From positions 47,273 through 111,272 of the IMG/VR virus record IMGVR_UViG_3300032073_000007: a DNA stretch of 64,000 bases; one strand, written 5' to 3'. A model generated the notes under the pieces. The model saw only the letters and a program-made list of their open reading frames with translations, was not told the DNA's origin and did no database searches. Source of the stretch: a virus. Made by a program: the position numbers and the translations under genes. Shown one piece after another: positions 10,367-49,000 of the stretch (the first letter of the stretch is position 1; every line of letters begins with the position of its first letter).

Positions 10367-12328
10367 TTACACAGAAATTTGAGTTGAATGATATAAAATT
10401 GCAGAAGACAAGTCATCTAACTGATGTTGAGAACCCAATTCAAGAACCTTGGCATTGACATTTAATAAACTTATTTTGTCTAAATCTTCTACTATTTCAG
10501 TTAAAGTAGGCTCCCATTCACTTGCGTCTTTTGCTATAACAATAGATTCACAAACTTGAGTAACCATTTCTTTTTTTTGCTTAGACATCCGTTTCAAACC
10601 GAATTTAGAAGCAAATTCTTTAAAGGCTAATAGTTCAAATTCATTTAATCTTTTAGTTGCCTCGACAATATTCTTTTTTGAATAATTTGAGTTTGATACT
10701 CCTACTGGTCTACCACCAGAAGGCGAGACAGGTTTCTCTTCTTTTTTTTCTGGCTCTGATGAAGTTTCACCATCATCATACAAATTTATTGTATTAACTA
10801 AGGGCATGTAGTGTCCCTTTTCTCTATCGTCTACAAATTTCGTTTGAGCCGCTTCCATATCTTTCCCTTGAGGGAAAACTCCAGTATGAACAACTTGCAT
10901 CCCTTGTTCTGGGGTAAGAACACCAAGCTCCATAAGTCTCGTTGCTAGCTTGGACAAGTTATTATCATCCATCGTATCTGTCTTTGCAAACTTCGCTTCT
11001 GGGAAGCTACGCAAGCCAGCAGCCTTACAGATTCTTCTAATTTCTGGATTAATAAAGTCATGCAAGAAAGATCTCCTAGACTCTTCAAGCCTTTGGAAGA
11101 AAACCTTCATTTTCATTGTGGCATCAGAATACTTTGAATCGCCAATCAAAACATTTTGCAAACCATCTTCAATGTCTTTGTTAATAACTGCATATTTTTC
11201 TGGCCCAACAACTTTTCTAATATCAGGAATGATAAAATCTGCTTTAGTAGTATAATCAGAAACAAGCACACGACCTACGCTTTGATTTTTAAATATCTGC
11301 TGCATAGCTGCTAGATTTCTATGATTTACTCCTCCCTTGTCTGGCTCATTACCCATCGTGACAAGTAACACAACATTCTCAATAGATCTACTAATTGCCT
11401 GATCAATGTTTTTTAATTCTATTTTTCTATTGATATCGTCTAGAACAGAATAACCGACTGGAACAGCCATCGGCTCATAGTCTTGTTTTTTAGAAAAGAC
11501 TACATGTAATAACTTAGGATCTAATTTAATTTGAATCCTTGTCATTGCATATTGATTCTTCCCGTTGGTAAGTGCTTCTTGCACATCTTTTGGTAAAGAT
11601 TTAAACATCTCTAACTCATGATCTGTCTCTGGTTTTTGGAGCCTAGAGATCTCAAAAGGAGTTAAGACTTTGAAATATTCATAACCACTAAAAGAAACCG
11701 AACCTTTGGTCGCTATATCTGTAGGGTTAATCAGTAAATATTTTATAGGAATTTCTTTTCTCGCGCTTGCCCCATATGCCTCCAACATTTTTTGAGAGTT
11801 TTTGAGTGGTATTTTTCCATCCACTCTATAAAAGAAGACATTTCCCGATCTGTAATATTCTCTAAAATATTGTTCTTTTAAGTTGTGCATCCTGATTCTC
11901 TTGAACCAAGCATCAATAAATTTTCTTGATTTATCATTACCCCCCTCTAAATAAATATCAGAGTCTGCAAACTCAGACAATAGATCTACAGTCCCCCTAA
12001 ATGACGAAATATTAAAGTAAGCTTTCTGACAAAGTTCTACCGCCTCCCTAGTGTCTGCCCCTCCTTTTTCATAATTAAAGGGTAAAATACCATTTTTAAT
12101 ATTTTCAAATTTGTTATCTAACCCCAAAGTCGCTACTGCGTTGGTTCGCGCCTTTGTTCTGGCTGTTGGAGAAGTCAAACGTGAAGCCTCGCTTGAACTA
12201 AAAATAGGTTCGCCAATTAGCTCTGGGCTAAAACCATCTTCTTGTGGGTTTAATAAATTTTCTATGGGAGTATCCGTCTTGTTGAATTTTTCCCAATACT
12301 CTGATCTTTTGGTATATTTACGAGGCAT
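10367..12328 (-). CDS. Portal protein
   Basis: Directly after terminase; REYYRSGNVFFY portal-like motif; start placed at ATG 12328 (MPRKY) behind a GTGTAA motif. Confidence 0.75.
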   Translation of the reverse strand: MPRKYTKRSEYWEKFNKTDTPIENLLNPQEDGFSPELIGEPIFSSSEASRLTSPTARTKARTNAVATLGLDNKFENIKNGILPFNYEKGGADTREAVELCQKAYFNISSFRGTVDLLSEFADSDIYLEGGNDKSRKFIDAWFKRIRMHNLKEQYFREYYRSGNVFFYRVDGKIPLKNSQKMLEAYGASARKEIPIKYLLINPTDIATKGSVSFSGYEYFKVLTPFEISRLQKPETDHELEMFKSLPKDVQEALTNGKNQYAMTRIQIKLDPKLLHVVFSKKQDYEPMAVPVGYSVLDDINRKIELKNIDQAISRSIENVVLLVTMGNEPDKGGVNHRNLAAMQQIFKNQSVGRVLVSDYTTKADFIIPDIRKVVGPEKYAVINKDIEDGLQNVLIGDSKYSDATMKMKVFFQRLEESRRSFLHDFINPEIRRICKAAGLRSFPEAKFAKTDTMDDNNLSKLATRLMELGVLTPEQGMQVVHTGVFPQGKDMEAAQTKFVDDREKGHYMPLVNTINLYDDGETSSEPEKKEEKPVSPSGGRPVGVSNSNYSKKNIVEATKRLNEFELLAFKEFASKFGLKRMSKQKKEMVTQVCESIVIAKDASEWEPTLTEIVEDLDKISLLNVNAKVLELGSQHQLDDLSSAILYHSTQISV

Positions 12329-19682: not shown

Positions 19683-19720
19683 GAGCCTCGTCACCCCAAC
19701 GGGTGGCGAGGTTTTTTCTT
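19683..19720 (+). terminator. Intrinsic terminator
   Basis: GCCTCGTCACCC-CAAC-GGGTGGCGAGGT plus T tract. Confidence 0.8.
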
Positions 19721-19748
19721 GTAAAAAAACAAATAAAAAGCTTGACAG

Positions 19749-19827
19749 CGTAACTCACTGATACTCAACGAGTTACGCGCGGCGGCCCGCCCCCGCCCCG
19801 TAACTCCTTGATAACCAACGACTTACG
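19749..19827 (+). repeat. 79-bp bipartite palindromic element, copy 1 (forward)
   Basis: CGTAACTCACTGATACTCAACGAGTTACG + CGCGGCGGCCCGCCCCCGCCC + CGTAACTCCTTGATAACCAACGACTTACG. Confidence 0.95.
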
Positions 19828-19975
19828 AAGATTCCTCATGTATCATACTTTCAGATCAACGCAAGCATTTAAATGAAAAAAATTAACCTGTCTGACAACT
19901 TAAAAAAAAATCATTTTAAAGGTAAAAAAAGCTTTTAATTCATACGGATCTGTGCTATACTTCTCCCAGCAAGAA

Positions 19976-20089
19976 AGCTCTATAGTTTAAAAAGTAAAAC
20001 ATTCTCCGCGACCGCTTCAACAATAAGTCACCGCAACCCCAATGGTTCGGGCGAGAAAGATAAAGGTGCAAGTCCTTTTAGAGCGACCA
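19976..20089 (+). ncRNA. tRNA-Pro(CGG)-like RNA with 39-nt insertion in the anticodon arm
   Basis: Acceptor GCTCTA/TAGAGC with GACCA end, D stem GTTT/AAAC, anticodon stem TTCTC/GAGAA, T arm AAAGG-TGCAAGT-CCTTT; own promoter (TATACT 19956-19961). Confidence 0.7.
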
Positions 20090-20151
20090 ATTTCCCTAAA
20101 AAAACAAAATAAAAGTTTGCACTATCTCAAAAACTAAAGTAGATTCTACTC

Positions 20152-20340
20152 ATGACAGAAAAAGAACAAATCGAACACCTCAAAGATCAAATCTTCAAAC
20201 TTCAAATGGTAATGAAGGGAGTTTCAGGCATCGCAGCAGCAAGGTCTTCATTCAAAGAGACTTCTGCCTTTAACAAGGAGACCTTCAAAAGAATCGAGAG
20301 CCAACTTGATGAAGCAGTCAAGGAAGTTCAGTTAGGGTAG
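20152..20340 (+). CDS. 62-aa helical early protein whose last codon and stop overlap the mini-tmRNA
   Basis: TTGCAC-17-TAGATT-6 nt-ATG. Confidence 0.75.
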   Translation: MTEKEQIEHLKDQIFKLQMVMKGVSGIAAARSSFKETSAFNKETFKRIESQLDEAVKEVQLG

Positions 20341-20399
20341 CAAGGGTTTCGACGGGACGCAAGTCGCGGATGGGGGTTCGACTCCCCCGCTATCCACCA
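20335..20399 (+). ncRNA. Mini-tmRNA: tRNA-like domain only, no tag reading frame
   Basis: GGGTAGC/GCTATCC acceptor with G3-U70, A discriminator, encoded CCA; stemless D loop AAGGGTTTCGAC; short helix capped by GCAA; GGAT; GGGGG-TTCGACT-CCCCC T arm. Confidence 0.85.
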
Positions 20400-20467
20400 A
20401 AAAAAAATCAAAATAAATACAAAAAAAGCTTTTTACTCACTCAAATCTCTGTTATAATTCTCTCGTT

Positions 20468-20803
20468 ATGAAAAACACCACTACCACTACCACCACCCGC
20501 TTCGATCACTCTCTCTATGGACTCAGTGATCAAGACCTCAAGAAAAAGCTCACCAATCGCGTTGTTATCTACTGGAACAGCGAAGAATCCTCCGTCAAGA
20601 ATGATGGTGTCCGTCAGTTCGTGGTCAAGTCAATCGACTACACTGGTCACGCCAAGGGTTCGGGTCGCCGTTACATCCAAGGGGAGTTCCAAGACCTCGA
20701 CGATGGAGGCAAGACCAAGTTCCGCACTCTCCACGTTGCGGGAATCGAAAAGGTGAAGGGTCGCGTGGCGACCGCTTACAAGCTAGCCAAATCAGTTTTT
20801 TAA
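20468..20803 (+). CDS. Stand-alone WYL-like domain protein (paralogue A)
   Basis: RQFVVKSI...GRRYI...DGGKTKFRTLHVAGIEKV; paralogue of 21930-22208. Confidence 0.5.
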   Translation: MKNTTTTTTTRFDHSLYGLSDQDLKKKLTNRVVIYWNSEESSVKNDGVRQFVVKSIDYTGHAKGSGRRYIQGEFQDLDDGGKTKFRTLHVAGIEKVKGRVATAYKLAKSVF

Positions 20804-20817
20804 GTGCATAGCGTGTT

Positions 20818-20854
20818 GCCCGTCAGTCTCTTCGGAGGCTGGCGGGTTTTTTTT
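20818..20854 (+). terminator. Intrinsic terminator
   Basis: GCCCGTCAGTCTC-TTCG-GAGGCTGGCGGGT plus T tract. Confidence 0.85.
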
Positions 20855-20883
20855 GCATTAAATTGTTTTTTGGCCTTGACAGC

Positions 20884-20962
20884 CGTAACTCCTTCATACT
20901 CAGTGAGTTACGCGCTGCGGCCAGCCCGCCCTGCGTAACTCCTTGATACTCAACGAGTTACG
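20884..20962 (+). repeat. 79-bp element, copy 2 (forward)
   Basis: 29+21+29 bp; core CGCTGCGGCCAGCCCGCCCTG. Confidence 0.95.
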
Positions 20963-21447: not shown

Positions 21448-21666
21448 ATGTATACGTTCAGCTACTACATCGTCGCCAGCACAGGAGTTTACACAGGAGT
21501 CGCGATGTCGCGTTCTCCCAAGAAGGCTTCTGAAGAAGCCTCGCGGATCGCTTGGGAAAATCTCTACGAGGGGGATGCCAAAGCTGAATACTGTTCGGGC
21601 ATCTCCGTGGAGGGGTGGACAGCGTGGCGAGGTCATAAAAAAATCGCGGAATACATGGACATCTAA
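21448..21666 (+). CDS. Small early protein; stop codon lies inside element copy 3
   Basis: TTGCCA-16-TACACT-6 nt-ATG. Confidence 0.65.
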   Translation: MYTFSYYIVASTGVYTGVAMSRSPKKASEEASRIAWENLYEGDAKAEYCSGISVEGWTAWRGHKKIAEYMDI

Positions 21667-21740
21667 CTCCTTGATAATCAGGGAGTTACGGGGCGGGGGT
21701 AGGCCGCAGCGCGTAACTCATTGATATACAACGAGTTACG
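21662..21740 (-). repeat. 79-bp element, copy 3 (reverse core)
   Basis: Core GGGCGGGGGTAGGCCGCAGCG is the reverse complement of the consensus core. Confidence 0.95.
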
Positions 21741-21929
21741 ACTGAAAAAAAATGAATTTAAATGCAGAAATCGCTTGCATATCTGGTGATATTTGGTAAA
21801 CTATTTGCATCGAAGCTATTTAACCTATGCTTCTCTAACCTACAACAAAAACAGACCATGCTCAGAAAAAAATTAAAATTCAGCAAAAAACCTCTTGCAC
21901 TCACTCAAAATCCTGTTATACTTATCCCA

Positions 21930-22816: not shown

Positions 22817-22895
22817 CCTAACTCCTTAATACTCAGGGACTTACGCGCTGCGGGCGGCCCCCGCCCCGTAAGTCGTTGATACTCAACGACTTACG
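22817..22895 (+). repeat. 79-bp element, copy 4 (forward), abutting the tRNA 3' end
   Basis: Core CGCTGCGGGCGGCCCCCGCCC. Confidence 0.95.
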
Positions 22896-22998
22896 CAGGA
22901 AAAAGAAACACATGTTTTTAAGTCTGTCAAGCAGAAAAAAATAAAAGAAAAAGCTAAAAAAGGGTTGCATCAAATCAATTATGTGGTAAACTTCTTGC

Positions 22999-23757: not shown

Positions 23758-23854
23758 CCCTGCCGCTACCATCACAGGCCCGCATTCCGAAAGGGGTGCG
23801 GGCTTTTGCTTGCAAAAATAAAATGTTTTTTTAGTTGACACGGTATTCAAGCCT

Positions 23855-23933
23855 CATAACTCGTTGAATATCAACGAGTTACGGGGCGGGGGCCGCCCGC
23901 GCAGCGTAACTGCTTGATACTCAAGGACTTACG
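23855..23933 (-). repeat. 79-bp element, copy 5 (reverse core)
   Basis: Core GGGCGGGGGCCGCCCGCGCAG; its reverse complement matches the copy 4 core at 18/21. Confidence 0.95.
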
Positions 23934-23992
23934 ACTGAATTTTAATTCTTTTTTAATTTGACAGTTTTTTTTCTTTGGGGTATATTTTTGCC

Positions 23993-25194: not shown

Positions 25195-25202
25195 CCCATC
25201 TC

Positions 25203-25281
25203 CGTAACTCCTTCATAATGAGGGAGTTACGCGCGGCGGCCCGCCCGCTCGGCGTAACTCGTTGATAATCAGTGACTTACG
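25203..25281 (+). repeat. 79-bp element, copy 6 (forward)
   Basis: Core CGCGGCGGCCCGCCCGCTCGG; marks the end of the plus-strand island. Confidence 0.95.
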
Positions 25282-25363
25282 ACAGATCAATGTATAAAAA
25301 AAACCGCACAAACGTGCGGTTCTGTGGTATGCTTATTTGCTTATTAAGGCTTTAACCTATAAC

Positions 25364-26826: not shown

Positions 26827-27447
26827 TTATAATAACTGAACCCTTTCAAACTGCTTTTCTTCTACTATTCCCAGCTTATCTTTTATTAGCTTAATTAGTA
26901 TTGATATGGGTCTGCCTCCTGTCTTCTCTTCTTCATATAGCCATATGTTATTTGCACAGGTTCTACGGTTTGGATTCTCTGGAGTAGGGCAAAGGTCATT
27001 AGGTTTAAGCACTCTTGTTTTAAGCTTATCAAAATCATGTATATCATTCCACCCAAGAAGTTTTGCTGTAGCTGTTTTTATATTGCCCCGATATAAAACA
27101 TCATACCACACAACAACAGCATTGTTTCTTTTGTATTTCTCCTTATGGGATGGTGCTAGAGAATGCCAAGCATTTGCTTTTATCTCAAATATCTGATCTT
27201 CTATCTGTATATCACTCCCCTTATTGGTAAAGTGCCTTGCCTCAAATTTAATTTTATCCTCTGGTATACCTTCTTTAATCAAAAGATTATAAAAACTATA
27301 TTCCGCAATAGCTCCTCTAATAGCAGAAGATTGATTGTTGTGTTTATAGGCGTTTCTACCAGTCTGCTGTCGTTTTTTATTTAATTCAACAGCTTTTTTA
27401 GCTCCTATTTGTATTTCTTCGGTTTGTTTATCTGTAAGGGTGTTCAT
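26827..27447 (-). CDS. PD-(D/E)XK-like nuclease
   Basis: GAIAE...SDIQI...FEIKA. Confidence 0.5.
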   Translation of the reverse strand: MNTLTDKQTEEIQIGAKKAVELNKKRQQTGRNAYKHNNQSSAIRGAIAEYSFYNLLIKEGIPEDKIKFEARHFTNKGSDIQIEDQIFEIKANAWHSLAPSHKEKYKRNNAVVVWYDVLYRGNIKTATAKLLGWNDIHDFDKLKTRVLKPNDLCPTPENPNRRTCANNIWLYEEEKTGGRPISILIKLIKDKLGIVEEKQFERVQLL

Positions 27448-28040
27448 AAAAATGATTTCTTTCTCTTTCTTTTAAGCTTTTCTAAAACACGACGAAAAAG
27501 GAAGGCTCTAGTAGAGTAGTTGGGACCAGATTGTCCCCAATGAACGCTTGATTCTTCTAAATTTTTCTTATATTCATCTTCAAAAACCAATTTAAAAGAT
27601 TGTATTTGGCCATAAGAGAACCCTCCAAGTTTTTTTACGCAAGCTTTTATTAAATCTTCGTGAAAGCAAGACCCAAAAATTTCTTTATAATCTCTATTAG
27701 TCCTAATTTCAAGCCAAGTATTATAATAAGGAACGCTTGTTTTTTTTATCCAAAGCCACATAGCGTCTTTACAATTTATGTTGGGAGCTTCTTTATGGCA
27801 GTGTTTGCATAATAAAACAAGATTACACGGTTTGTCTGAGCCTTTTAATGAATGGGGTATGATATGACATCTTTCGATCCTGTTTGTGGTTTTTGACTCG
27901 CATAAGTCGGCGCATCTCCAGCATCTACGTTCTGGCGAATCTGCCCAATCTATCCCCATATCGCCTTCATAAACTCTCGATTGCCAATAATCTACAATTT
28001 CTGAATGAGAAGGTAATCGTCTTTTTGTTTCCTTTTTCAT
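27444..28040 (-). CDS. HNH endonuclease
   Basis: CWRC...CHIIPHSLKGSD...NLVLLCKHCH. Confidence 0.85.
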   Translation of the reverse strand: MKKETKRRLPSHSEIVDYWQSRVYEGDMGIDWADSPERRCWRCADLCESKTTNRIERCHIIPHSLKGSDKPCNLVLLCKHCHKEAPNINCKDAMWLWIKKTSVPYYNTWLEIRTNRDYKEIFGSCFHEDLIKACVKKLGGFSYGQIQSFKLVFEDEYKKNLEESSVHWGQSGPNYSTRAFLFRRVLEKLKRKRKKSFL

Positions 28041-28052
28041 TACTTAATTGTT

Positions 28053-28128
28053 TGGTAGCGGGAGTGGGATTCGAACCCACACTTTAGCGATTTTAAGTCG
28101 CTTGCCTCTGCCGTTGGGCTACCCCGCC
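28053..28128 (-). tRNA. tRNA-Leu(UAA), short variable loop
   Basis: GGCGGGG...AGCGA-CTTAAAA-TCGCT-AAAGT-GTGGG-TTCGAAT-CCCAC-TCCCGCT-ACCA. Confidence 0.9.
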
Positions 28129-28213: not shown

Positions 28214-28606
28214 TCATTGTTCTATGATTTTTTCTCCAGTGTATCGAGATAATTGAGTAGAGGATATCTCATATTCATTACTTGCCCCTCTTGCTACTGA
28301 TCTGAACGTCATGTAGTCCTCTGGTAAAGCATGTATGTATAACCCCTTCTGTTCATTATAATACCCATTCTTCTCTTCAAGCAATTGAAGCATCTTTTCT
28401 AACTGGAATTTAGTTAATTTTACCCGAACATCAAATCTTTTGTATTTAGTAGGTTGTTTATCTACTGAAATAGATTCTTCGGGTAAGTTAAATATCTCTG
28501 TTACCTCAGATTCTTCCTCAATGAAGTGAGTAGCGACCAAGAATGCCAAGGCAAAGGTGACCGCAAATGATACTATTCCAATTTCAAGCCTTCTGTCTTT
28601 CTTCAT
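28214..28606 (-). CDS. Membrane-anchored hypothetical protein
   Basis: N-terminal TM helix. Confidence 0.6.
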   Translation of the reverse strand: MKKDRRLEIGIVSFAVTFALAFLVATHFIEEESEVTEIFNLPEESISVDKQPTKYKRFDVRVKLTKFQLEKMLQLLEEKNGYYNEQKGLYIHALPEDYMTFRSVARGASNEYEISSTQLSRYTGEKIIEQ

Positions 28607-36234: not shown

Positions 36235-39200
36235 TTAGCCTGAGTATTCTATATCGTCAATTTCTATCTCAAGTTTTCCTATGTCCTTGCGTTCTGCATA
36301 AACAACATAGAAATAATTAAGAGGAGTTTCTGTATTTGAACCTATAGTTACTTCTCCATCATCCGCGATTGATTCAACATAAAGATCTTGATTTGGACCT
36401 ATGGCTGTAATATCTACTGTCATCGAATCAATATGGACTAGACCAATCCAGTAATCAGGCATCTCAAGTATATTTGAGGTGCTTTTCCCTCGGAAATATA
36501 CACCATTTTCTGGACCCTCGATACACGCATGGAGTAACTGCTTACCCTCTTTTGTCGGGTGTTTTATTAAGAAGCTTTTTGATGAGCCTACAATAGAACC
36601 GCCAACTTGAAGTGCATAAGAAGCGCTTGTTACTCCTATGCCAACGTTACCTTGAATAATAGCTCCGTTAGATGGGGCAGTGTTCCCAACATAGCTAGCT
36701 CCAACAGCTATGCCTCCAGATACGTCTAGTTTGTTAGCTGGATTATTTGTTCCTATACCAACATTACCGTCTTGCTCTATAGAAAATCTTTCTCCACCAG
36801 TGGCACTATTGATATGTTCATAAATCCTAAAGGAACCCCTGCCACTACCACTTCTATTAACTCCTATACTCCATCCATAGTTAGTAACTGTGCTTGAAGC
36901 GAAGGAGATACCTTGCCATCCAGTATTATCAACTGTATTAGTAGATTCTAGTCGTATTTGACTAGAAGCCCATTGTGCAGCCACACCCATCGGTGCTATT
37001 GTGTTAATGCTACCTCCGACGGTCAGCTTTTGAGATGGACTTGCTGTCCCTATACCAACTTTATTATTTATAACCGTCCCACCTGAATTAACACCAAGTA
37101 AGATATCATAACCTGTTCCTCCATCATTACGTATTCTTAAATCATTACCAGCGTGGTTGAATTTCCACAAGTTACTATTATCACTGCGACCAAGCTCTAA
37201 TGATTCGTCGTTACCATTTGTTGATTCAAATTTAGCAGTTCCTTGGTATACATGAAGTTCCTGTTCTGGACTCGTTGTTCCTATACCAACATTACCTGAT
37301 AAAGTTGCCCCACCTGTTATAGAAACGCCTGTGCTTGTTGTCTCAAACCTTTTAGTATTATTATAGTAAAGTTCTACAGCATCGTTCTCACTTGCATTTA
37401 TAATTAATTCGTCTGTAGAAGCATTATAAACTCTAAACTGATTTGTGGATAAACGTAATCCACCAGACCCTGTATCATTTATATAACTATTAGAGCCATC
37501 GTGGTAGATTTGGAGATCGTTACCATGACCGAAAGTTATTCTTCCGAAACTAGTGCTAGACGAATCAAGTAGTTGAATATTACCACCAACATAAATACCT
37601 GTAGAAGTTGTCTCTAATTTTGCAGAATTATTATGGTATAAGTTTACCGCACCGCCTTGGTGAGCAATCAACATAGAAGAACTATCTGCCCCCAGTAACC
37701 TTAAGCTGTTGCTTTGTAAATTGAAATTACCTGTCCCAGTATCTTGAATATAACTATGGTTACCATCATGGAATATCTGGAGATCCAAGCCAGTTCCAAA
37801 GATGGCCTTCCCGTTATCTACAGCAGTTAAAGCAGTAGAGGAAGTTGTTATTACGCTTCCAGCGGTTAAATTATTAGCTTGTGCAATATTTACGTTACCT
37901 GCAAAGGTTGCATTAGTTGATGTATCTAAAGTTAAAGCAGTAGTATTACCTAGTATAAATCTTAATTCTCGAAGGTTATTTGAAGCGTTTACATAAGTTG
38001 ATTGAATATAACTATAAGCAGAATCATTTGTGCCTATTTGTATTGCTGTTCCACCCGATCCATTATGTATTGTTAAACCAGTAGACGCTACATTGCCAGA
38101 GGTTGTAGGCGCACCATTGGAATTAATTGATAATTTACTAAACGGGCTAGTTGTTCCTATACCAACGTTACCTCCGTTAAACCAGCTATTTCCTGCGGTA
38201 TCAATCCTTACGTCTTCTGTTCCTGCATCAAATAACGATAGCAAACCTTTATCAAGATTACTTCCTGTTCCTCTTGGGATTATTCTTGCGACACTATAAT
38301 CCGCTGACTTCAAGTATATCTCCGCGCCATCACCTTTAATGTCTAATGTTGCTGTCGGACTCGTTGTTCCTATACCAACATTGCCTGTGTTTGTTATACT
38401 TAATCGGGCATTAGTTCCTAAAGTAGTATTGTCTGCTATTTCAAAGGTGCTGCCATTAACACCTAACGCAAAAGTATTGGATGAAGCGGCTAATTTAATT
38501 TGAGGGCGTGAATCTCTTGAGCTTATTTCTACTGACCCACTACCGCCAACGTCACGGGTAAATTTAGCTAATGGCCCACCAACACCTCCTCCAGTTACCA
38601 AAAGACCTGTCCCAGCAGTAGCGTTATCGTCGATGTGAAATTTAGTTGTCGGACTCGCTATTCCTATACCAACATAGCCGTCAGATTGCTTCATAGAGAT
38701 AAGACCTGTCAGTGATCCACCTGTATTATATCCTTGAATTTCAAAACCTGTTGTATCGTTGTTTTGTATTTGGAAAGCCCCGAAAGTGTTATTGTAGATA
38801 GCTCCCGTGCTTGTATTTCTGTTAAGTCCTATTCTACCACCGTTGGCGTTTTGTATTTTTACATTACCGACTCTAACGCTACCATTTACTTCAAGCTTTT
38901 CATTAGGAGTAATTGTTCCTATACCAACGTTGCCTGTAGGTTGAAAAATTGTGTCGGCTACTGAATTTATCCTTAAATCAATGCCATCTGTGGTTATAGT
39001 GCCTACAGTTGATTCACTCCCGACTGAACCATATTTAAAGTGCATGAAGCCAGCACCAGATGTATTAATTGTAATATCACCGCCAGTTACATCTAACCTA
39101 GAGTCAGGAGTCGCTGTTCCGATACCAACGTTGCCGTTTGTTTTGAACCTAGCAATTTCAGATGATTCGATTTCAAAAGCTAAGTCACTATTGTTAATGA

Positions 39201-42200
39201 TTTCCCAATCAGATCCACCTCTTCTCAAATGAAGTCTTGCTTCGTGGGTTCCAGCATCTTCATGAACTGCAATCGTTGTATTAGCGCCATTACCGTAAAC
39301 TTCTAGCTTCCCAAAAGTCGGACTAGTTGTTCCGATACCGACCTTGCCAGCGTTAAACCAACTGTCTCCGTGAGCGCTTAACCTAATATCCTCGTTATTA
39401 GAAGCGTCTAAGATAGATATCTTTCCTGAACCTACCCCATCTAAAGAATGATTAATTTTGACAACGCCATTTGAGTTTGAAAAATGAGCTATATCTACAC
39501 TTGTAGTTGCAGTCGCAGCCACTTCTAACTTAGTGCTAGGACTAGTCGTTCCTATACCAACATTGCCGTCACCTTTGAGCCGCATGACTTCAGCGCCAGT
39601 GGTATTATTTCCATTAGAAACACCTAGAGCCATGTAGTTGTCTGCTACAGTAGAGAATTCCTTGGTTCTTATGTAAGAGACATAATTGGTTCCATCAAAT
39701 GTAAATTTGATACCACCTTCACCAGTCCCTTTATTTAGATTTAGCACATCAGTGCCTCCACCTGATCCCTTGATCTCCAGCTTGTTAGTCGGACCAGTTG
39801 TTCCTATACCAACGTTACCCGCCCCTTCATTTAGCACTAAAATACCGCCACCACCATTACCACTGTTAATGTAAGATCTAGTTTCGTCTACCCAAATTCT
39901 TATAGATCTACCAGCAGAAGCAGATAAAACACCTATACCCGCTTCATCAACATTAGTAGCTTGATTAACTTGTAAAGCTCCAAATGCATTAGGATTATTA
40001 GAGTTGCCTACTTGAACATCCCCGTCTACATGTAAATTTGCGATAGGATTCGTTGTTCCTATGCCAACGTTACCGTTAGTATCAATACGCATTCTTTCAT
40101 TACCAGCATTTGTAGTGAAAGTCAAAAACCCTCCTGTGGAACTACCTCCTCTGTAGAATGTTACAGCAGCGTTCTCTGTGGTATTATAATATAATCCATG
40201 TTTAAAAGCGTAAGCGTTACTCCCGTTACTTGTGCCGTTGTTATAAGTAGTTAGCCTAAATGCAGTTTCACTACCATTTATTAAGCTCATCCAAGCAGCG
40301 CCAGATGTAACAGAAACATCTAACTTAGCACTTGGACTAGTTGTTCCTATTCCAACACTATTAGTCGTAGTATTACCATTGTCAGTTACTTCTTGGAGAG
40401 TTGCGCTTCCAACTTGAGAATCTACATAACCTTTTGATGCTGCATCTGTAGAGTCTGTTACAGTGTCTATACCTTGGATACGTCCTGTTCCACCTAATGA
40501 TATATTCCCACTGTTTACGGTAAGCCCAGTGCTTGTAATGGAACCCATAGCTGTAGCAGCAGAACCATTCCAGTATTCAAAAATATACCCAGCACCTGTG
40601 TTTGTGCTAGTAAACCTATGATGTTGGCCACTAACGGCTGGAACTATATCTAAATGTCTAGATCCGCTAGCTTCTTCTAAACGCAAAGCCGCTCCTTTTA
40701 CATGAAGCTCCTGCTGTGGATCTTCTGTTGCTATACCGACAAAACCAGCATTAAAAGTCATGTGTGGATTAGATCCATCTCCATCTGCGAAAAGGTGTGT
40801 TTTTGATGAATCATCATAGAGAGCGAATCTGAATCCACCCCCTCCTGTATACTTATAAAAACCTCCAGCGTTAGAGTCTAACCTAATTCTAGTGCCTACC
40901 ACATGTAGTTGATTCGCTGGATTAGTTGTTCCTATGCCAACATTGCCAGAAGAGTCGATACGCATACGTTCTGAACCATCATCTAACCAACGTAGTCCCT
41001 GATTTGAACCATCAACTTGCATTTCCCAGTAACCAGAACCATTAGTCGCACGGTAACCAACATAAGCGGAAGTATTGGTGCTCTCTGTTATTACTCTCTC
41101 TGTTGTTCTCGCTGATGATATATGTAATCTACTTGATGGACCAGTTGTTCCTATGCCAACGTCACCATCGCTTTTAATAAGCATGGTTGTGGTGTTCGCC
41201 GAGTTGTGGGAACTACCAAACTTAAAATGAGTTTCTGAAAAAGAGTGGATATGAGCTATGTCAGCAGTTGAAGCTTGGAAACCAACATTCCTACTGGCAT
41301 TAAAATGCATTAACCCGTTATAATGATTGTTATCTATCTTTTGTGCGGTCCCAGAATTTGTATATAAAAGATCTGCTGAAAAAGTATTACCATTATCAGT
41401 TACTTCCTGCAAAGTATCTGCGCTACCAACTTGAGCATCGACATACGCTTTGTTTGCTGCGTCTGTAGAATCTGTTACAGTATCTATACCTTGGATACGT
41501 CCTGTTCCACCTAATGTTATGTTACCCCCGTCTACGGTAACAGTGCCTAAAACTTGTAAGGTGTTAGTCAAGCTTCTTTTTATATGGACTAGATCGGTCA
41601 GTGTAGAACCAATTCTTCCTCTAAACTCTAGTCGATCATCGGCTCCATTATAGTTAATATCAAAATTAGTCGTATTAGATACTTCTGAAAATATAATTGT
41701 GCCGTTAGGATCAGTGTTCGCTCCAGAATTATCGTATAATGTAATAGTCGGGTCCGTCTTAGCGATTGTTAAGTTGCCTGTAAGAGTTCCACCTGCTAGT
41801 GGCAAGTAACTTCCAAGACCAGACGTAATAGCATTATCAACGTAAGTTTTACTCGTAGCGTCAGTCCCTGATGAAACAGTATCAATACCTTGTATTCTAC
41901 CTGTCCCACCTAATGTCAAACTACCCCCAAGAGTTAAATCTCCTGCTTGAGTTAAAGTCATAGCGGTTTGCATACTAGCTCCACTGCCATTGCCGACCCT
42001 CCACAGCCATGAACCGTTGTTGTCGGATGTATTACTATCCCATTGATCAAATCTAGTAGTCATATTACCACTAGTTTCATCTTGTCTATGCACTAAATGT
42101 GCATTCCTGTCATCCACATATGCTCCCCAATATTGATTACTACTTCTACCAATTTTTATTTGAGGTTGAGTCGTTTGGACTTGTGCATTAGTAAATACCT

Positions 42201-45200
42201 GAAGACCTGCGCTCTCATCTGTATGAAGAATATTTAAACGCGCATTACTTGCGTCCCATTCCATGTATTCTCCCGAATCATTACCATAGAATTTGACATC
42301 ATATCCCGTATCATCTACGCCAACTTGGACGGTTCCGTCTACATGTAATTTAGATGCTGGGCCAGTTGTTCCTATTCCAACGTTGCCGCTATCGAACATT
42401 AAGGTCAGAAGGTTACTAGAGTCTGTATCATTATTAATTACAAATCTGTTACTTCCTTCTAATGCTAATTCTATAGTATCATGTCCACTTCTACCGAATT
42501 TCATTCCCGTAGAAGAAGGTTGATATAAATGCAGTGGCGCTGTCGGACTCGTTGTTCCTATACCAACTTTGCCAGAAGAGTCAATTCGTAATCTTTCGGA
42601 GTTATCTGTAGTAAAAGCTAGAAAATCACTTGACTCATTTCCAACTATTCTGACTCTGCCTATGTTTGCGTCTGCTGTTGACCAAGTTATTCTCTGACCG
42701 TCATCTAATCTTATGTTGCCACCCGAAATATCTAGTTTTTCTTGTGGACTAGTTGCTCCTATACCGACCTTATCTGAAGTTAATATTATATCTCCTGATG
42801 CACCAGATTGTAAGTATAAATTTTGGCTACTAGAGAAGTAGCTAGATCTAATTTTTTTTGTTGCTATACCTTCATTAGCATCTACCCTAACTTCTCCGTT
42901 AACATGGAGTTTTTCTGCTGGGCTATTTGTTCCTATACCAACGTTACCAGAAGAGTTAATACGTAACCTCTCTGTCGGATTATTTGAGTTAGTTCCATGA
43001 CCAATAATGAAGTTACCAGATCCATCGTTGTAAATTCTGCTATCTAAACCTCCAGAAGGAACGACAAACAACATATTAGGAGCTGCCGCAGTTATAGATA
43101 ATGTGCTATTAGCAACGTTAAGATTATCATCAAATTGAGATGTTCCCGCAACCTGCAACTTGGTGGACGGATTAGTTGTTCCTATACCAACGTTATTATT
43201 AAGTCTATTTATAACTAAAGCGTCTGAACCTAATTGTGTGTTCCTAATGCGGAACATGTCGTTAGTAGCTCCTCCAGTATATTGGTTTTCTAATTCCCAA
43301 GTAGTGTATGTCCCTTCTAATCGAAGGTGTGGACCAGAACTAGCTGACACTCCAGAGATACCGAATTCACCAAAAACGGTATTTGAAGTTAGATATTTAG
43401 AAACAAATGGAAGCTCTAACTGTGTCGTCCACCTGTCTGATAAATAATTTATAGCTGCTACTTTTACTAAATTTGCGTCTGTTGTTATTGAAATCTCAAT
43501 ATCAGTTAAGTAGTTATTCGTCGATATTGGAAACTTTATTACCTTGTAACCGCTATTGGTAGATACGTCTGTTCCTGTAGAAGAATAATAAACACCACCA
43601 CTTTTATGCCTTAAACTTATAGCCGTGTATGCATGGTTCGTATAATAGAAAGATATATAAACATTGCCTTGCGGGTAGGTGATACCATTAGACGGGACTC
43701 CTTGTTGACCAGCTACGTTTACATTTATGACATTAGTAGTGTTAGTAGGTAAGTTACCTGCCTGATCAAAGCCCCCATTAAAGAAACTTGGGCTACCTCC
43801 AGTCACTGTGAAGCGTAGATCTGCTTTATAAAAGACATCAGACAATTCATTTAGCTTAATTCTGCTCTGTCCAAATACCGAAACAACAGAGCTGTATTCT
43901 AACGTATCAATGCTAGCAGTGCCAGCTACGTGTAATTTAGAAGACGGATTAGTTGTTCCTATACCAACGTTGCCTGCACTATCAATAACGAAATCTGCTG
44001 TCTGACCATTGCCATTTACAACCTCTAAAAGATTAGCAGAGGTGTGGACATTTCTCGCTAGTAATTGTATAGCTGTTACTCCATTTGCGGCGCTAGAAGC
44101 TACTTGAGCAGGACCGTTTGTTTTTTGGAAATGAAGTTGTTGTATTGTAGATCCAAATTGTATTTCAGCAGAGTTACCTCTTACATAACGCGAAGTATCA
44201 GTTCCAAATTGAAGTGTTCCGAAAGATGTGCTACTCGCATCTTCAATTATCCCGATACCTTTAACATGAAGAGTTTGAGATGGATTAGTTGTTCCTATCC
44301 CTACTTTACCGCCGTCATCTATAACAAGTGGCGAACTTGAATAATCTCCACCTATGTTAAATATAGCTTTATTATTAGCATTATCATAATTTATAGCTAA
44401 ACATTTATTAGTGCTAGCTTCGGAGCCAACATAAATAGATGAAACTCCACTAGTTCTATCTTGACCAAAAATTGCTTGGTTTTGGCTGCTTCCTGCAACC
44501 GAAAGAGATAGATCTGGACTATCTGTTCCTATACCGACATTACCATCAGAATCAATCCGCATGGTTTCAGCAGAAATGCCTGTGCCATTAGTAGAAAAAA
44601 TTAAATCATTATCTGTATTAGATATAATAGAACCCCTACCGCCAGCAGGATCTCTAAACAACAAACCTGCATTATAAGAGTTGGAGACTAAGAAATCTAT
44701 GTTGTTATCTTTTGCTTCGGCAGCGGTGCTGATAGACAATGCCTCGGCTGGGGCGTTATTACCTATTCCTACATTACCGCCAGCGGCTGGCATCAAAGAT
44801 ATATCAGGGTCACCAGCCCCAGCATTTGTTACTATTTCAAACCTATTAAATCTTGAGCTTATCCTAGCAATGTTTGCACTAGCTACACTACCATCAACTT
44901 CTATGTAATTAGACCCAGCATTTTGGAATCGAGCAATACCGCTTCCTAAATGGAATTTAGTTGAAGGACTATCTGTTCCTATACCGACATTACCAGCAGT
45001 TTCGTTTAGTAATAAATCGGCAGTTGGGTCGATGCTTAGATCTCCAGCGTTTGTTGTAATCTTTCTATTGCCAAGACCACCACCAAAAAATGTAAGGTCA
45101 TCTGCTACAATATCAACACCATGAGCGTTGTTAGGGTTGGTGAGCGTGAATCCATCCGCTGCATCCATTTCGATTTTGGAGTTAGCTGCCCCTTTAATAT

Positions 45201-46056
45201 CGTTAGTCCCTATATCAATACTGCCTCCACGAACCTCAAGAGCGGAGCTTGGAGAGGTTGTTCCGATTCCCAAGTTGCCAGTAATGAAAGAATTGCTACC
45301 ATCTCCAGCTAATCTAACCGTTTCATTAGAACCTGTATCATACAGTCTTAGTTGACCACCCCCAGCAGAGAATTGAACTATTCTAGCAGCTAAATTATTA
45401 TCGGCTTTTCTTATAGAGAAATCTGCTGATGTCCCCACAATTGTCAAAGCATCATCAGGAGTCGATGTCCCTATTCCCACATTGCCAACTTGTGTAATTC
45501 TTACTTTTTCTGTGCCGTTGGTATAGAGCTGCATGAAGTCGCCGTGGTCGTTGCCATCAATACCCATATTTCTACCACCAGCGCTCCTAGCCCAAATTCC
45601 GAATTCAGCTCTTATGTGTTTACTGTTAGCTATTAAGTCATTTGCTTGAAAATCAAGTATCTCACCATTAGAATCAATAATGTTGTCTTGACTTAATGAG
45701 AGCTTGGAGCCTGATATATGTGCAACTTTTATGTCAGTTGTTGTCGTATTACCTCTACTAGTAACAGTTTGTAAAGTATCTGCTTCTGGTGATGCTCCTG
45801 TCATCACAGGGTTGCCACCAACAGTGATTGCTGTTGAGAAATTTCCGCTTGTGCCATGAATAGCGCCCTCTACATCTAGTGTAAATTGAGGGTCTGTCGT
45901 TCCTATACCCACATTGCTGCCCGTAAACCAAATGTTTCCCCCTGTAGCGTCTAACCTTATAGGCGCGGTAGAAGTATGAAAAGAATCATCACAACCTGCG
46001 ACTCCAGTATTGAATTCGATTACTCCTGATTGTGGGCTGATAATAATATTAGACAT
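36235..46056 (-). CDS. Giant modular tail fibre/adhesin (3273 aa)
   Basis: About 30 GNVGIGTT junctions; C-terminal KSFLIKHP...LHACIEGPE...PDYW chaperone-like domain. Confidence 0.8.
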   Translation of the reverse strand: MSNIIISPQSGVIEFNTGVAGCDDSFHTSTAPIRLDATGGNIWFTGSNVGIGTTDPQFTLDVEGAIHGTSGNFSTAITVGGNPVMTGASPEADTLQTVTSRGNTTTTDIKVAHISGSKLSLSQDNIIDSNGEILDFQANDLIANSKHIRAEFGIWARSAGGRNMGIDGNDHGDFMQLYTNGTEKVRITQVGNVGIGTSTPDDALTIVGTSADFSIRKADNNLAARIVQFSAGGGQLRLYDTGSNETVRLAGDGSNSFITGNLGIGTTSPSSALEVRGGSIDIGTNDIKGAANSKIEMDAADGFTLTNPNNAHGVDIVADDLTFFGGGLGNRKITTNAGDLSIDPTADLLLNETAGNVGIGTDSPSTKFHLGSGIARFQNAGSNYIEVDGSVASANIARISSRFNRFEIVTNAGAGDPDISLMPAAGGNVGIGNNAPAEALSISTAAEAKDNNIDFLVSNSYNAGLLFRDPAGGRGSIISNTDNDLIFSTNGTGISAETMRIDSDGNVGIGTDSPDLSLSVAGSSQNQAIFGQDRTSGVSSIYVGSEASTNKCLAINYDNANNKAIFNIGGDYSSSPLVIDDGGKVGIGTTNPSQTLHVKGIGIIEDASSTSFGTLQFGTDTSRYVRGNSAEIQFGSTIQQLHFQKTNGPAQVASSAANGVTAIQLLARNVHTSANLLEVVNGNGQTADFVIDSAGNVGIGTTNPSSKLHVAGTASIDTLEYSSVVSVFGQSRIKLNELSDVFYKADLRFTVTGGSPSFFNGGFDQAGNLPTNTTNVINVNVAGQQGVPSNGITYPQGNVYISFYYTNHAYTAISLRHKSGGVYYSSTGTDVSTNSGYKVIKFPISTNNYLTDIEISITTDANLVKVAAINYLSDRWTTQLELPFVSKYLTSNTVFGEFGISGVSASSGPHLRLEGTYTTWELENQYTGGATNDMFRIRNTQLGSDALVINRLNNNVGIGTTNPSTKLQVAGTSQFDDNLNVANSTLSITAAAPNMLFVVPSGGLDSRIYNDGSGNFIIGHGTNSNNPTERLRINSSGNVGIGTNSPAEKLHVNGEVRVDANEGIATKKIRSSYFSSSQNLYLQSGASGDIILTSDKVGIGATSPQEKLDISGGNIRLDDGQRITWSTADANIGRVRIVGNESSDFLAFTTDNSERLRIDSSGKVGIGTTSPTAPLHLYQPSSTGMKFGRSGHDTIELALEGSNRFVINNDTDSSNLLTLMFDSGNVGIGTTGPASKLHVDGTVQVGVDDTGYDVKFYGNDSGEYMEWDASNARLNILHTDESAGLQVFTNAQVQTTQPQIKIGRSSNQYWGAYVDDRNAHLVHRQDETSGNMTTRFDQWDSNTSDNNGSWLWRVGNGSGASMQTAMTLTQAGDLTLGGSLTLGGTGRIQGIDTVSSGTDATSKTYVDNAITSGLGSYLPLAGGTLTGNLTIAKTDPTITLYDNSGANTDPNGTIIFSEVSNTTNFDINYNGADDRLEFRGRIGSTLTDLVHIKRSLTNTLQVLGTVTVDGGNITLGGTGRIQGIDTVTDSTDAANKAYVDAQVGSADTLQEVTDNGNTFSADLLYTNSGTAQKIDNNHYNGLMHFNASRNVGFQASTADIAHIHSFSETHFKFGSSHNSANTTTMLIKSDGDVGIGTTGPSSRLHISSARTTERVITESTNTSAYVGYRATNGSGYWEMQVDGSNQGLRWLDDGSERMRIDSSGNVGIGTTNPANQLHVVGTRIRLDSNAGGFYKYTGGGGFRFALYDDSSKTHLFADGDGSNPHMTFNAGFVGIATEDPQQELHVKGAALRLEEASGSRHLDIVPAVSGQHHRFTSTNTGAGYIFEYWNGSAATAMGSITSTGLTVNSGNISLGGTGRIQGIDTVTDSTDAASKGYVDSQVGSATLQEVTDNGNTTTNSVGIGTTSPSAKLDVSVTSGAAWMSLINGSETAFRLTTYNNGTSNGSNAYAFKHGLYYNTTENAAVTFYRGGSSTGGFLTFTTNAGNERMRIDTNGNVGIGTTNPIANLHVDGDVQVGNSNNPNAFGALQVNQATNVDEAGIGVLSASAGRSIRIWVDETRSYINSGNGGGGILVLNEGAGNVGIGTTGPTNKLEIKGSGGGTDVLNLNKGTGEGGIKFTFDGTNYVSYIRTKEFSTVADNYMALGVSNGNNTTGAEVMRLKGDGNVGIGTTSPSTKLEVAATATTSVDIAHFSNSNGVVKINHSLDGVGSGKISILDASNNEDIRLSAHGDSWFNAGKVGIGTTSPTFGKLEVYGNGANTTIAVHEDAGTHEARLHLRRGGSDWEIINNSDLAFEIESSEIARFKTNGNVGIGTATPDSRLDVTGGDITINTSGAGFMHFKYGSVGSESTVGTITTDGIDLRINSVADTIFQPTGNVGIGTITPNEKLEVNGSVRVGNVKIQNANGGRIGLNRNTSTGAIYNNTFGAFQIQNNDTTGFEIQGYNTGGSLTGLISMKQSDGYVGIGIASPTTKFHIDDNATAGTGLLVTGGGVGGPLAKFTRDVGGSGSVEISSRDSRPQIKLAASSNTFALGVNGSTFEIADNTTLGTNARLSITNTGNVGIGTTSPTATLDIKGDGAEIYLKSADYSVARIIPRGTGSNLDKGLLSLFDAGTEDVRIDTAGNSWFNGGNVGIGTTSPFSKLSINSNGAPTTSGNVASTGLTIHNGSGGTAIQIGTNDSAYSYIQSTYVNASNNLRELRFILGNTTALTLDTSTNATFAGNVNIAQANNLTAGSVITTSSTALTAVDNGKAIFGTGLDLQIFHDGNHSYIQDTGTGNFNLQSNSLRLLGADSSSMLIAHQGGAVNLYHNNSAKLETTSTGIYVGGNIQLLDSSSTSFGRITFGHGNDLQIYHDGSNSYINDTGSGGLRLSTNQFRVYNASTDELIINASENDAVELYYNNTKRFETTSTGVSITGGATLSGNVGIGTTSPEQELHVYQGTAKFESTNGNDESLELGRSDNSNLWKFNHAGNDLRIRNDGGTGYDILLGVNSGGTVINNKVGIGTASPSQKLTVGGSINTIAPMGVAAQWASSQIRLESTNTVDNTGWQGISFASSTVTNYGWSIGVNRSGSGRGSFRIYEHINSATGGERFSIEQDGNVGIGTNNPANKLDVSGGIAVGASYVGNTAPSNGAIIQGNVGIGVTSASYALQVGGSIVGSSKSFLIKHPTKEGKQLLHACIEGPENGVYFRGKSTSNILEMPDYWIGLVHIDSMTVDITAIGPNQDLYVESIADDGEVTIGSNTETPLNYFYVVYAERKDIGKLEIEIDDIEYSG

Positions 46057-46065
46057 CGTATTTTA

Positions 46066-49000
46066 TTACACTTTTAATGGTTCTATCTCTAGTTTATCTA
46101 TATCTTTACGCTCTCCATAAACTACATAATCAAAAGAACCTTCTGCTCCTCCAATTTTTATTAATTTATTTGATTTTTCTTTAATAAATAAATCTTGTTT
46201 CTTACCAATTGGGGTAAGAACGACAGTTATAGAGTCCTCATGCACAAGTTCTGACCAGTATTCTGGGAGATCTATTGTTTCTTTGTCTGTTGTCCCTCTG
46301 ACATAGACTCCGTTTTCTGGACCCTCTAAAGATGCGTATTGTAGTTTTTTGTCTTTTTGGGTCGGGTGGTCAATGATGAATGACTTGCTTGTTGCTGCAA
46401 AGTGGCCATTTACTTCCAGTTTAGAGCAAGGGTTTGTTGTTCCTATACCAACATAGCCACCACTCTTAATTTCCAGTAATGAATCCTCTGAAGTTCCTAC
46501 TGAAAACCTCATTCCATTATCTAAACTTGCGATCTGTCCAATTTGAGCAGTATCTGATCTAAACCTTATGCTTGGTCTGTGGGAACCTGCTGTAGGATCA
46601 TTATCTTGAATTGTTAAAAAATCAGTATCATCATCTGTGTTCCCAACAATATCTAACTTACCTCTTGGACTAGTTGTTCCTATACCAACGTTTTGATTAG
46701 TATCAATCGTTATGGCTGTTGTATCAGCAGTCTCAAAAGATAAATTTTTACTAGCTATTGTGCCAACCTTTAAACCGTTAGTGTTATCGTATCTGATAAG
46801 AGAGCTATTGCTTGCTTGACTTAATCTTATAGCAGCACCGTTAGTGTCGCTGTTAATATGTAATGTAGTTTTAGATCCGTTTGCAGACGGGCTGTTTGTT
46901 CCTATTCCAACGTTGCCAGATCCATCAATACGAACTCTCTCAAGTCTATCTGTTATTATACCTATATTGTTTGTCGCTGGTAGATATAACCCCGACTCAT
47001 CCCCAGTGGTATCGTCAAGTTGAATCGAAGGAGACGTTAATGCGCCCCCGTTTAATGCTTTAAATCTATCACCAGAGACAACACCATCTAAATGAATATT
47101 AGCACCTCCAATAGTAAAGTTGCCACTATTGTCAACATAGATTGCCGCCTTATCGGTTCCAGTGTAGGTTTGGAAAACCATTGCTGTGCCTGCTGTAGAA
47201 CTAACAAAAGGAGCATTACCATCTGGTTGTCTAAATCTTATTGTGCCAGCAAAAGATGATGCTTTGATTTCTAATTTACCAGATGGATTAGTTGTTCCTA
47301 TACCAACGTTACCGCTTGCATCAATATTTAAATTATTAGCGTGTGTGCCAACTTGAAACCCAAATGATCCTTTGCTGTCTGCAGCGGATAAATAAATTTG
47401 TGTATCATCATCATAAATCCCTATAGCCGCTTTATTATCTAAAGAATTAAAAGAAGCTACTATATCATCTGTTGCTGTTTCTACATCTAATGTGTGGTTA
47501 GGTGAAGTAGTTCCTATACCAACTTTGCCGTCATTTTTAATGACCATTCTGTCGTTAACTCCTCCAGTAACGAAAACGTAATCATTAGCACTAAAATTTA
47601 ATTGTTTGTATGCGGAGGCTGATCTTTTGTAACTGAATATAACATTTCTGTTATTAGCATCTTGCGGTATAAATTCTAAACCTGTTCCTCCTGAGTCTAC
47701 TACGCTTAGTAAATTGGCTGGATTTGTTGTTCCTATACCAACGTTACCGTCAGTTCTTTTTATTACTAAAGCTTGAGAAACTTCTGCTGTTCCTATTTCT
47801 AATCTATTAGCAGAACCATCATACTTCATCCACGCTTGATGAGCACCACCATCCGTTTCCGCGAAAGCAAGTTTACCACTATTTGCGGAGTTTCCTGTCA
47901 CAGCGTTTATTAAAATTGTTGGATCAGAATCTCCTTGGACATTTAATAAAGCGTTTGGACCCGTTGTTCCTATACCAACATTTCCTGTGTTTGTTATACT
48001 TAATCGTGGATTAGTTCCTAATTTATCATTATCTGCTATTTCAAACGTGCTGCCATTAACGCCTAACGCAAAAGTATTAGATGAAGCCGCTAATTTAATT
48101 TGAGGGCGTGAATCACTAGAATTTATAGCTATCGTCCCACTACCACCAACATCACGGGTAAATGTAGCTAGTGCTTGTCCAAGGCCACCTCCAGTTAGCA
48201 GAAGACCTGTCCCAGTAGAAGCATCATCGTCGATGTGGAATATAGTGGATGGATTTGTTGTTCCTATACCAACGCTTCCTTCAAAATAGTTCTTATCACC
48301 TCCTACATATATACCATATGCATTTGCACCTTTAGTTCCTTCGTAAGCACCTTTAAATAAATATTGATTACCAAAGTTAGGCACAGATCCTTCATTATTA
48401 TCTATAATTGACGACACACCAATCATTGTGCCATAATTTATAGTGGAAGCTTTATCTATTGTAACTTCTCCTTCAACGCCTTTCGTGACACCAACATCAG
48501 CATCACCCCTACCAGAGGAAATAAGAACTAAAAATTTTCCTCCAAAACTATTATCTACATCGCCTAAATCTTGGACATTGCTATATCCATAAACTCCATA
48601 CATATTTGATACTCCTCCAGAGGTAGAGGCTGCATCATGTATTGCTTGTCCGTAAACTCCTATTAATTGACTTGTTTTTGCTCCTGTATAGTTTGATTCA
48701 GCGAGAAAATACCCACCACGAACTATATCTGAAAAACCAGTAAATCTAACATCAGAATGAACACCGTAAATTTTGTGTTCATTAGAAGCATCTCCATTAG
48801 CAGAGGAATCTATGTCTAATATCAAGCCTGAATTTAGTCTATCATCCGTGGTGTTGTCAGCACCACTTAAATTCATGTCGATTCTTACTGCTTGTGTAGC
48901 AACATCTGGATCATTTCTTGTATGACTGATATTTACAGTTCGCATTTCTGAACTGGTTGCGTCAGTAAGAACAGTTAGTTTAGCAGAAGCAGAATTTGAT

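Follow-up and report, generated by a model that had tools for sequence, protein, structure and literature searches.

Gene content and organization of the locus

The window analyzed here, a 64-kb stretch of a marine phage contig, carries terminase and PhoH genes and has a G+C content of 38.4%. Its DNA is present, at 90% or more, in 14 seawater runs from many studies. A TAnnnT box lies 4 to 8 nt 5' of the ATG in 28 of the 68 ORFs of the window, and a Shine-Dalgarno-like motif was found for only 5 of the 68. Leaderless genes are thus the rule in this phage, often with the motif cTTGAC 17 nt upstream of the TAnnnT box. The locus at 19700 to 20850 gave no match to INPHARED phages by blastn. A scan of genome contigs with the 3' half of the 65-nt RNA described below returned only two matches, both in a gut Pseudoflavonifractor, and gave no lead to the host.

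At the locus, a leaderless 62-aa ORF runs into the gene for a 65-nt tmRNA-like RNA, and a 111-aa ORF follows (Table 1). The -10 box of the 62-aa ORF is separated from its ATG by 6 nt, and this geometry of promoter and 6-nt gap is kept in all eight related loci (8/8). No second promoter-like site scoring 7 or more of 12 was found by motif scan in 20090 to 20345, and the statement of the initial annotation that the RNA lacks a promoter of its own therefore holds as far as motifs show. Nor does an intrinsic terminator separate the RNA from the promoter of the next gene, the scan listing none on the plus strand in 19715 to 20818. The 3' end of the ORF reads CAG TTA GGG TAG (20329 to 20340). The ORF list, the covariance model match, and the predicted fold together confirm that GGG TAG is at once the last codon plus stop of the ORF and nt 1 to 6 of the RNA, as had been noticed earlier.

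By its pattern of codon change, the 62-aa ORF is a real gene: pairwise dN/dS values against its relatives range from 0.07 to 0.25 over codons 1 to 56, and its protein family comprises 55 protein clusters in public data. An AlphaFold2 model places helices at residues 3 to 30 and 42 to 61 (mean pLDDT, 66), so that the product is predicted, with modest model confidence, to be a two-helix protein. Neither Pfam nor PHROGs gave a match for the ORF or its neighbors.

Table 1. Coordinates of features at the locus and of dispersed elements around it (window positions)
Feature	Position	Strand	Basis or detail
Promoter of the 62-aa ORF	20117-20145	+	-35 TTGCAC 20117-20122, 17-nt spacer, -10 TAGATT 20140-20145
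Leaderless 62-aa ORF	20152-20340	+	Last sense codon GGG and stop TAG inside the RNA
Predicted RNase P site	20334-20335	+	Between A20334 and G20335, from the acceptor-stem boundary
65-nt TLD-only (tRNA-like domain only, tag-less) tmRNA mimic	20335-20399	+	RF00023 and fold
Overlap GGG TAG	20335-20340	+	Codon 62 and stop = acceptor-stem nt 1-6
Acceptor 5' strand	20335-20341	+	7 bp with 20389-20395
D-loop-like GGUUUCGA region	20342-20352	+
P2a hairpin, GCAA loop	20353-20368	+	5-bp hairpin in the minimum-energy fold
T arm	20372-20388	+
Acceptor 3' strand	20389-20395	+
A73	20396	+
Encoded CCA	20397-20399	+
Run of 8 A	20400-20407	+	Directly 3' of CCA
Extended -10 box TGnTATAAT of the next gene	20450-20458	+	Read by eye, outside the scoring of the scan
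Next gene, 111-aa ORF	20468-20803	+	ORF list
Copies of the ~80-bp dispersed element	19741-19830, 20875-20962, 21664-21770, 22819-22898, 23854-23939, 25202-25287

A tRNA-like-domain-only tmRNA

The Rfam tmRNA model RF00023 matches the RNA from end to end (43.9 bits; E = 5.9e-16), except that 4 nt stand in for 312 positions in the center of the model; the score lies 3 bits below the gathering score of 47 set for full-length tmRNAs. Mycobacteriophage DS6A encodes a tmRNA of the same reduced kind, consisting of the tRNA-like domain (TLD) only and lacking a CDS (Hudson, Lau and Williams 2014, PMC4131195; also PMC11915505), and this mini-tmRNA scores nearly the same, at 43.2 bits, likewise below 47. 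The features expected of such a molecule are present in the window RNA. Its acceptor stem, GGGUAGC/GCUAUCC, contains the G3:U70 pair of alanine identity and is followed by the discriminator A73 and CCA. In the RF00023 alignment, it has the tmRNA-type D-loop analogue GGnUUCGACGGG without a D stem, as well as a GGUUCGAnUCC T loop; a short loop closes P2a, and the anticodon arm, the tag reading frame, and the pseudoknots are all absent. Because of the DS6A-like score, the complete fold, and the T-stem pairing in 53 of 53 homologues (see below), we conclude that the 65-nt RNA is real and is a member of a known but sparsely described TLD-only kind. Of alanylation by AlaRS and binding to SmpB and EF-Tu, which are biochemical properties, the sequence shows the identity elements.

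ARAGORN missed the RNA with default settings and yielded only spurious permuted calls with relaxed ones. Two other identities were ruled out from its structure. An attachment-site remnant does not fit, as the tRNA-like domain has its two halves, linked by the tetraloop; nor does a piece of a permuted tmRNA, as the acceptor strands occur in standard order within 65 nt. Two-piece (permuted) tmRNAs are common in marine phages (PMC9004378).

Mini-tmRNAs in other genomes and metagenomes

A pattern scan of metagenomes for mini-tmRNAs gave at least 119 matches (loci L015 to L133). Among the matches listed, 53 distinct mini-tmRNAs of 63 to 86 nt share the 7-bp acceptor stem and G3:U70, and the two outer T-stem pairs, which lay outside the search pattern, are canonical in 53 of 53, with 14 base-pair combinations. 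The D-loop analogue GGnUUCGACGGG and the T-loop motif are invariant in the alignment of these 53 sequences. TLD-only mini-tmRNAs of this size are thus widespread, and most of the contigs among the matches listed are marine.

The positions of these RNAs relative to upstream genes suggest how they are made. The DS6A RNA (28478 to 28560 in JN698994, a record in which it is without annotation) begins 10 nt past the stop codon of gp33 on the same strand and therefore probably matures from an mRNA precursor. In a groundwater contig (L080), an unrelated 65-nt mini-tmRNA (11528 to 11592, minus strand) follows a 163-aa ORF (11595 to 12083, minus strand) in such a way that the last base of the TAG is G1 of the RNA; that ORF has no relatives in IMG/VR. 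A cut by RNase P at this G1 would leave the message ending in ...UA. Counted from the stop of the upstream ORF, the RNA thus starts at +10 nt in DS6A, at +4 in L004 (a relative of the window phage), at -6 in the window, and at -1 in L080. These four independent cases lying directly behind an ORF argue for release of the RNA from mRNA by RNase P. In most of the approximately 50 other distinct mini-tmRNAs among the matches listed, the nearest upstream ORF ends 33 to 190 nt earlier. It hence looks common for mini-tmRNAs to be freed from mRNA precursors by RNase P, and loss of the stop codon looks like the exception.

Contigs assembled from RNA libraries cover parts of the window locus. Contig X20, from a metatranscriptome, spans 20225 to 20397, covering the 3' part of the ORF together with the RNA and ending 2 nt short of the CCA end, and contig X15, from an oligo-dT library, spans 19928 to 20329 and ends 5 nt before the RNA. 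As these are assembled Logan contigs, in which RNA ends and levels are not readable and DNA carry-over is possible, the contigs, their ends at 20329 and 20397, and the stretches left uncovered are weak hints, compatible with a joint precursor and with ends close to the predicted sites. The 31-mers at 20397 to 20428 are low-complexity matches to the A-run.

Junction variants among related phages

Comparison of the window junction with those of eight IMG/VR relatives and two metagenome contigs revealed three states. In five relatives (L005, L006-L008, L011, and L009) there is no RNA: the ORF has its own stop, and the next gene follows directly. A tmRNA-like RNA is absent throughout the 91-kb and 72-kb relatives. 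In L004, L003, and L108, the RNA is present behind a separate stop, the ORF ending in ATG CGC CCT TAG, with AATC between this stop and the RNA. The overlap state occurs in the window, in L010/L001, and in L114, with a nucleotide identity of 89 to 97% in the flanks. A single base distinguishes the L004 RNA from that of the window: where the window hairpin has a G-G mismatch, the L004 hairpin has a G-U pair. A second pattern scan of IMG/VR again recovered L001 and L003 only.

Alignment A3 matches the tail of L004 to those of the relatives lacking the RNA and shows the window-type junction to be 13 nt shorter. Judged from this alignment, the own-stop state is ancestral and the overlap is derived. 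The ORF family is older than the RNA.

Protein sequences extend this picture to many more contigs. The tail ..KEV[QK][LI]G, of proteins with 62 aa whose last residue is Gly because the codon GGG forces it, occurs in 13 clusters with approximately 124 contig sightings, and the proteins with this tail are 87 to 100% identical to the window protein. Tails ending in ..RP, which belong to the own-stop junction, account for approximately 44 contig sightings. Cluster P0008 (..KEVKLG; 36 contigs) has the same residues 1 to 56 as P0056 (..NEIKMRP; 19 contigs), which is the L004 protein. Since both tails thus sit on backgrounds identical over residues 1 to 56, the two junctions behave like alternative recombining variants, both of them common in seawater. 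At the DNA level, this comparison covers three overlap haplotypes (window, L010, and L114) and one own-stop type (L004/L108); the junctions of P0008, P0011 to P0013, P0015, P0016, and P0019 to P0021 were deduced from their protein tails.

The overlap is therefore conserved within the ..LG variant group only, and a cut placed before the stop codon, as expected of a programmed non-stop mRNA, is not conserved among the homologous loci. The initial annotation had made its interpretation depend on conservation of the overlap in relatives, and here the result is divided: the overlap is kept in L010/L001 and L114 and is missing from L004 and from the five RNA-less relatives. Given the own stop of L004, the five relatives without the RNA, and the occurrence of both tails on backgrounds that are identical over residues 1 to 56, the overlap is one variant of two and not a conserved design.

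Proposed origin and possible consequences of the overlap

Messenger RNAs without a stop codon are substrates of trans-translation. At the window locus, the sequence of events that we envisage would start from a TLD-only mimic packed against the 3' end of a conserved leaderless gene in one marine-phage subclade. We regard it as quite likely that ORF and RNA are cotranscribed from the single promoter in Table 1. The 5' ends of tmRNAs are made by RNase P (PMC3985003), and host RNase P would release the RNA by cutting between 20334 and 20335, a position of cleavage that we consider likely. The ancestral junction would have kept its own stop, as in L004 with its TAG 4 nt ahead of the RNA. In the 13-nt-shorter junction, the old stop would be out of frame, and the UAG provided by acceptor nt 4 to 6 would end translation; compaction or recombination may have produced this arrangement. 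Because the predicted cut precedes the UAG, the upstream fragment of the overlap variant would end in ...CAG UUA without a stop, whereas the L004 variant would keep its stop. Non-stop mRNAs among the processed transcripts would then be a likely side effect, with roughly even prospects, or slightly better, that they make up a meaningful fraction. They may be tolerated, perhaps since the RNA from the same transcript acts on ribosome rescue.

Two activities of the RNA are conceivable. By analogy with a molecule of similar kind, a strong inhibitor of tmRNA that may act through titration of SmpB (Mao et al. 2009, as described in PMC4131195), the 65-nt RNA might inhibit tagging by titrating SmpB. 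Alternatively, it might rescue ribosomes without tagging and add a single Ala, so that the product would end in ..VQL-A in place of ..VQL-G.

On balance, we think it probable that the overlap is a derived junction variant resulting from tight 3' packing and not a conserved regulatory device. The reading frame bears on this point. Of the three frames in which an ORF could enter the RNA, the overlap frame stops after 1 codon, and the others run for 26 and 44 codons. As immediate termination occurs in this entry frame alone, the overlap is more than coincidence; it can also be explained without any function, because a joint that removes the old stop would be viable mainly in the frame that stops at once.

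The earlier interpretation of the locus had been that one transcript gives rise to both a stop-less mRNA and a tag-less tmRNA mimic, serving as a feedback sensor of rescue capacity, a timer for the 62-aa protein, or a sink for ribosomes or SmpB. The first half of this is plausible as a mechanical inference, for which the single promoter, the position of the ORF against a tmRNA-like acceptor stem, and the production of tmRNA 5' ends by RNase P speak. What the relatives do not bear out is a conserved overlap, given L004 and the five RNA-less relatives, so that a conserved feedback device is not supported and the functions as sensor, timer, or sink are speculation. A selected device in which RNase P splits the transcript, and in which the yield of the 62-aa protein or the trapped ribosomes or SmpB report or modulate rescue capacity much as for arfA, seems to us quite unlikely. 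It would draw support from the wide distribution of the genotype in seawater, from the overlap tail being the commoner variant (approximately 124 versus 44 sightings) on several protein backgrounds, from the overlap of the unrelated L080 mini-tmRNA with an upstream TAG at G1, and from the precedents of arfA cleavage by RNase III (PMC3989581) and the proposal for selB/selC (PMC8124441). The frequency of the overlap tail is the main counterpoint to reading the overlap as a by-product, as its persistence would also fit a selected function. However, the nearest RNA-bearing relative, L004, is without the overlap, the own-stop tail on a background identical over residues 1 to 56 is also common, most of the ORF family is without the RNA, the overlap is the exception among the approximately 50 other distinct mini-tmRNAs among the matches listed, and the frame argument accounts for it without function. 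An elaborated form, which we consider improbable, would make the locus a self-contained pair: the RNase P split would give equal amounts of stop-less mRNA and alanine-charged mimic, the mimic together with host SmpB would resolve the stall on its sister mRNA, the protein ending in ...VQL-Ala would escape tagging, and its yield would be a read-out or sink of host rescue capacity.

The overlap might, conversely, have no practical consequence if the short leaderless mRNA is translated while it is being transcribed, ahead of folding and cutting, or if the RNA comes from a minor separate start or only from untranslated transcripts, practically all translated mRNAs keeping their UAG. A terminating ribosome at 20338 to 20340 would indeed be expected to cover the acceptor 5' strand and block its folding, contig X20 crosses the junction uncut, and L004 has weak internal promoter-like sites (7 to 8 of 12). 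The window, however, is without an internal promoter motif, and such contigs cannot show the ends or levels of RNAs; moreover, because no tmRNA-like RNA can function unless its 5' end is matured to G1, the precursor has to be cleaved at that point, and each cleavage leaves a 5' product lacking a stop. We therefore hold this reading to be unlikely. That the 65-nt element is not a working RNA at all, being a decayed tmRNA fragment or an integration-site remnant at the end of the ORF, might be suspected from the failure of ARAGORN to call it and from an Rfam score 3 bits under the gathering score. This we judge extremely improbable, since acceptor strands, G3:U70, D-loop-like motif, T arm, and CCA are all joined by a neat hairpin capped with GCAA, an attachment-site copy would hold the 3' part only, the accepted TLD-only tmRNA of DS6A scores the same, and the 53 distinct homologues among the matches listed show full T-stem covariation. 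The single base by which the L004 RNA differs, replacing a mismatch with a pair, likewise speaks against decay. Tight packing with a derived junction remains the reading that we prefer.

Comparison with known systems

The 65-nt RNA joins the DS6A-type family, and the idea that maturation of a tRNA-shaped RNA creates a non-stop mRNA has already been proposed for selB/selC. As in DS6A, the RNA is phage encoded, consists of an alanine-type tRNA-like domain with the center replaced by a short hairpin, and follows a same-strand ORF so closely that a promoter would not fit between them. It differs in that the gp33 stop lies outside the DS6A RNA, whereas the window stop forms acceptor nt 4 to 6. The window RNA is also shorter (65 versus 83 nt), has an encoded CCA, and comes from a marine, AT-rich phage with leaderless genes.

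In mitochondrial tRNA punctuation, partial stop codons (U or UA) are completed by polyadenylation. At the window junction, by comparison, the cut would leave ...UUA, to which added A's cannot make a stop. Common to mitochondrial punctuation, to the mRNA-tRNA cotranscript secG-leuU of E. coli, which is separated by RNase P (PMC2241853), and to the window is that 5' maturation of a tRNA-shaped RNA sets the 3' end of an mRNA.

In Alpha- and Gammaproteobacteria, selC, the gene for tRNA-Sec, is nested in or overlaps selB, and maturation of the tRNA was proposed to create a non-stop mRNA (Mukai 2021, PMC8124441). There, too, a tRNA-shaped gene overlaps the 3' end of an ORF, and the proposal is bioinformatic only. 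The selB/selC overlap, however, is conserved across many genera, and SelB and tRNA-Sec are functionally coupled, whereas the window overlap is one junction variant in a phage species group, and its ORF is without a known link to the RNA. The non-stop mRNA of E. coli arfA arises by RNase III cleavage within the ORF, and tmRNA tags the protein made from it as long as rescue capacity suffices (PMC3989581). The shared logic is that a processed stop-less mRNA serves as a read-out of trans-translation capacity. The means differ, an RNase III hairpin in arfA and an acceptor stem for RNase P in the window, and the arfA arrangement was shown experimentally, whereas in the window the cut is predicted from sequence and the overlap is not conserved.

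Few studies have dealt with TLD-only tmRNAs, which phages direct at the ribosome rescue of bacteria. Wild marine phages carry the two junction variants on protein backgrounds identical over residues 1 to 56, one keeping the stop and the other expected to lose it on processing. With this pair, nature already provides an experiment on how tRNA-type processing, translation termination, and ribosome rescue affect one another in infected cells. Should the overlap prove functional, it would be a phage counterpart of the arfA logic; on present evidence, it is a modest, variant-level curiosity.

Other features of the phage genome

A tRNA-shaped gene (19976 to 20089, plus strand) sits just 5' of the promoter of the 62-aa ORF, with its own -10 box, TATACT (approximately 19956 to 19961). 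It has an encoded CCA and 39 to 45 extra nt replacing the anticodon loop, scores 41.6 bits with the Rfam tRNA model, and is called by ARAGORN only with relaxed settings, which assign it to Pro(CGG) and place a 39-nt insert in it. Copies of an intergenic element of approximately 80 bp are dispersed in both orientations, with 75 to 88% identity among them (Table 1); the element flanks small-gene cassettes and is also found by BLAST in the relatives L004, L005, L008, and L009. Two giant ORFs lie side by side on the minus strand, encoding 3273 aa (36235 to 46056) and 3260 aa (46066 to 55848). Another tightly packed tRNA-mRNA pair is formed by tRNA-Leu(UAA) (28053 to 28128, minus strand), which is followed after 12 nt by the ATG of a 198-aa ORF (27444 to 28040, minus strand); 3' processing of this tRNA would leave a nearly leaderless mRNA.
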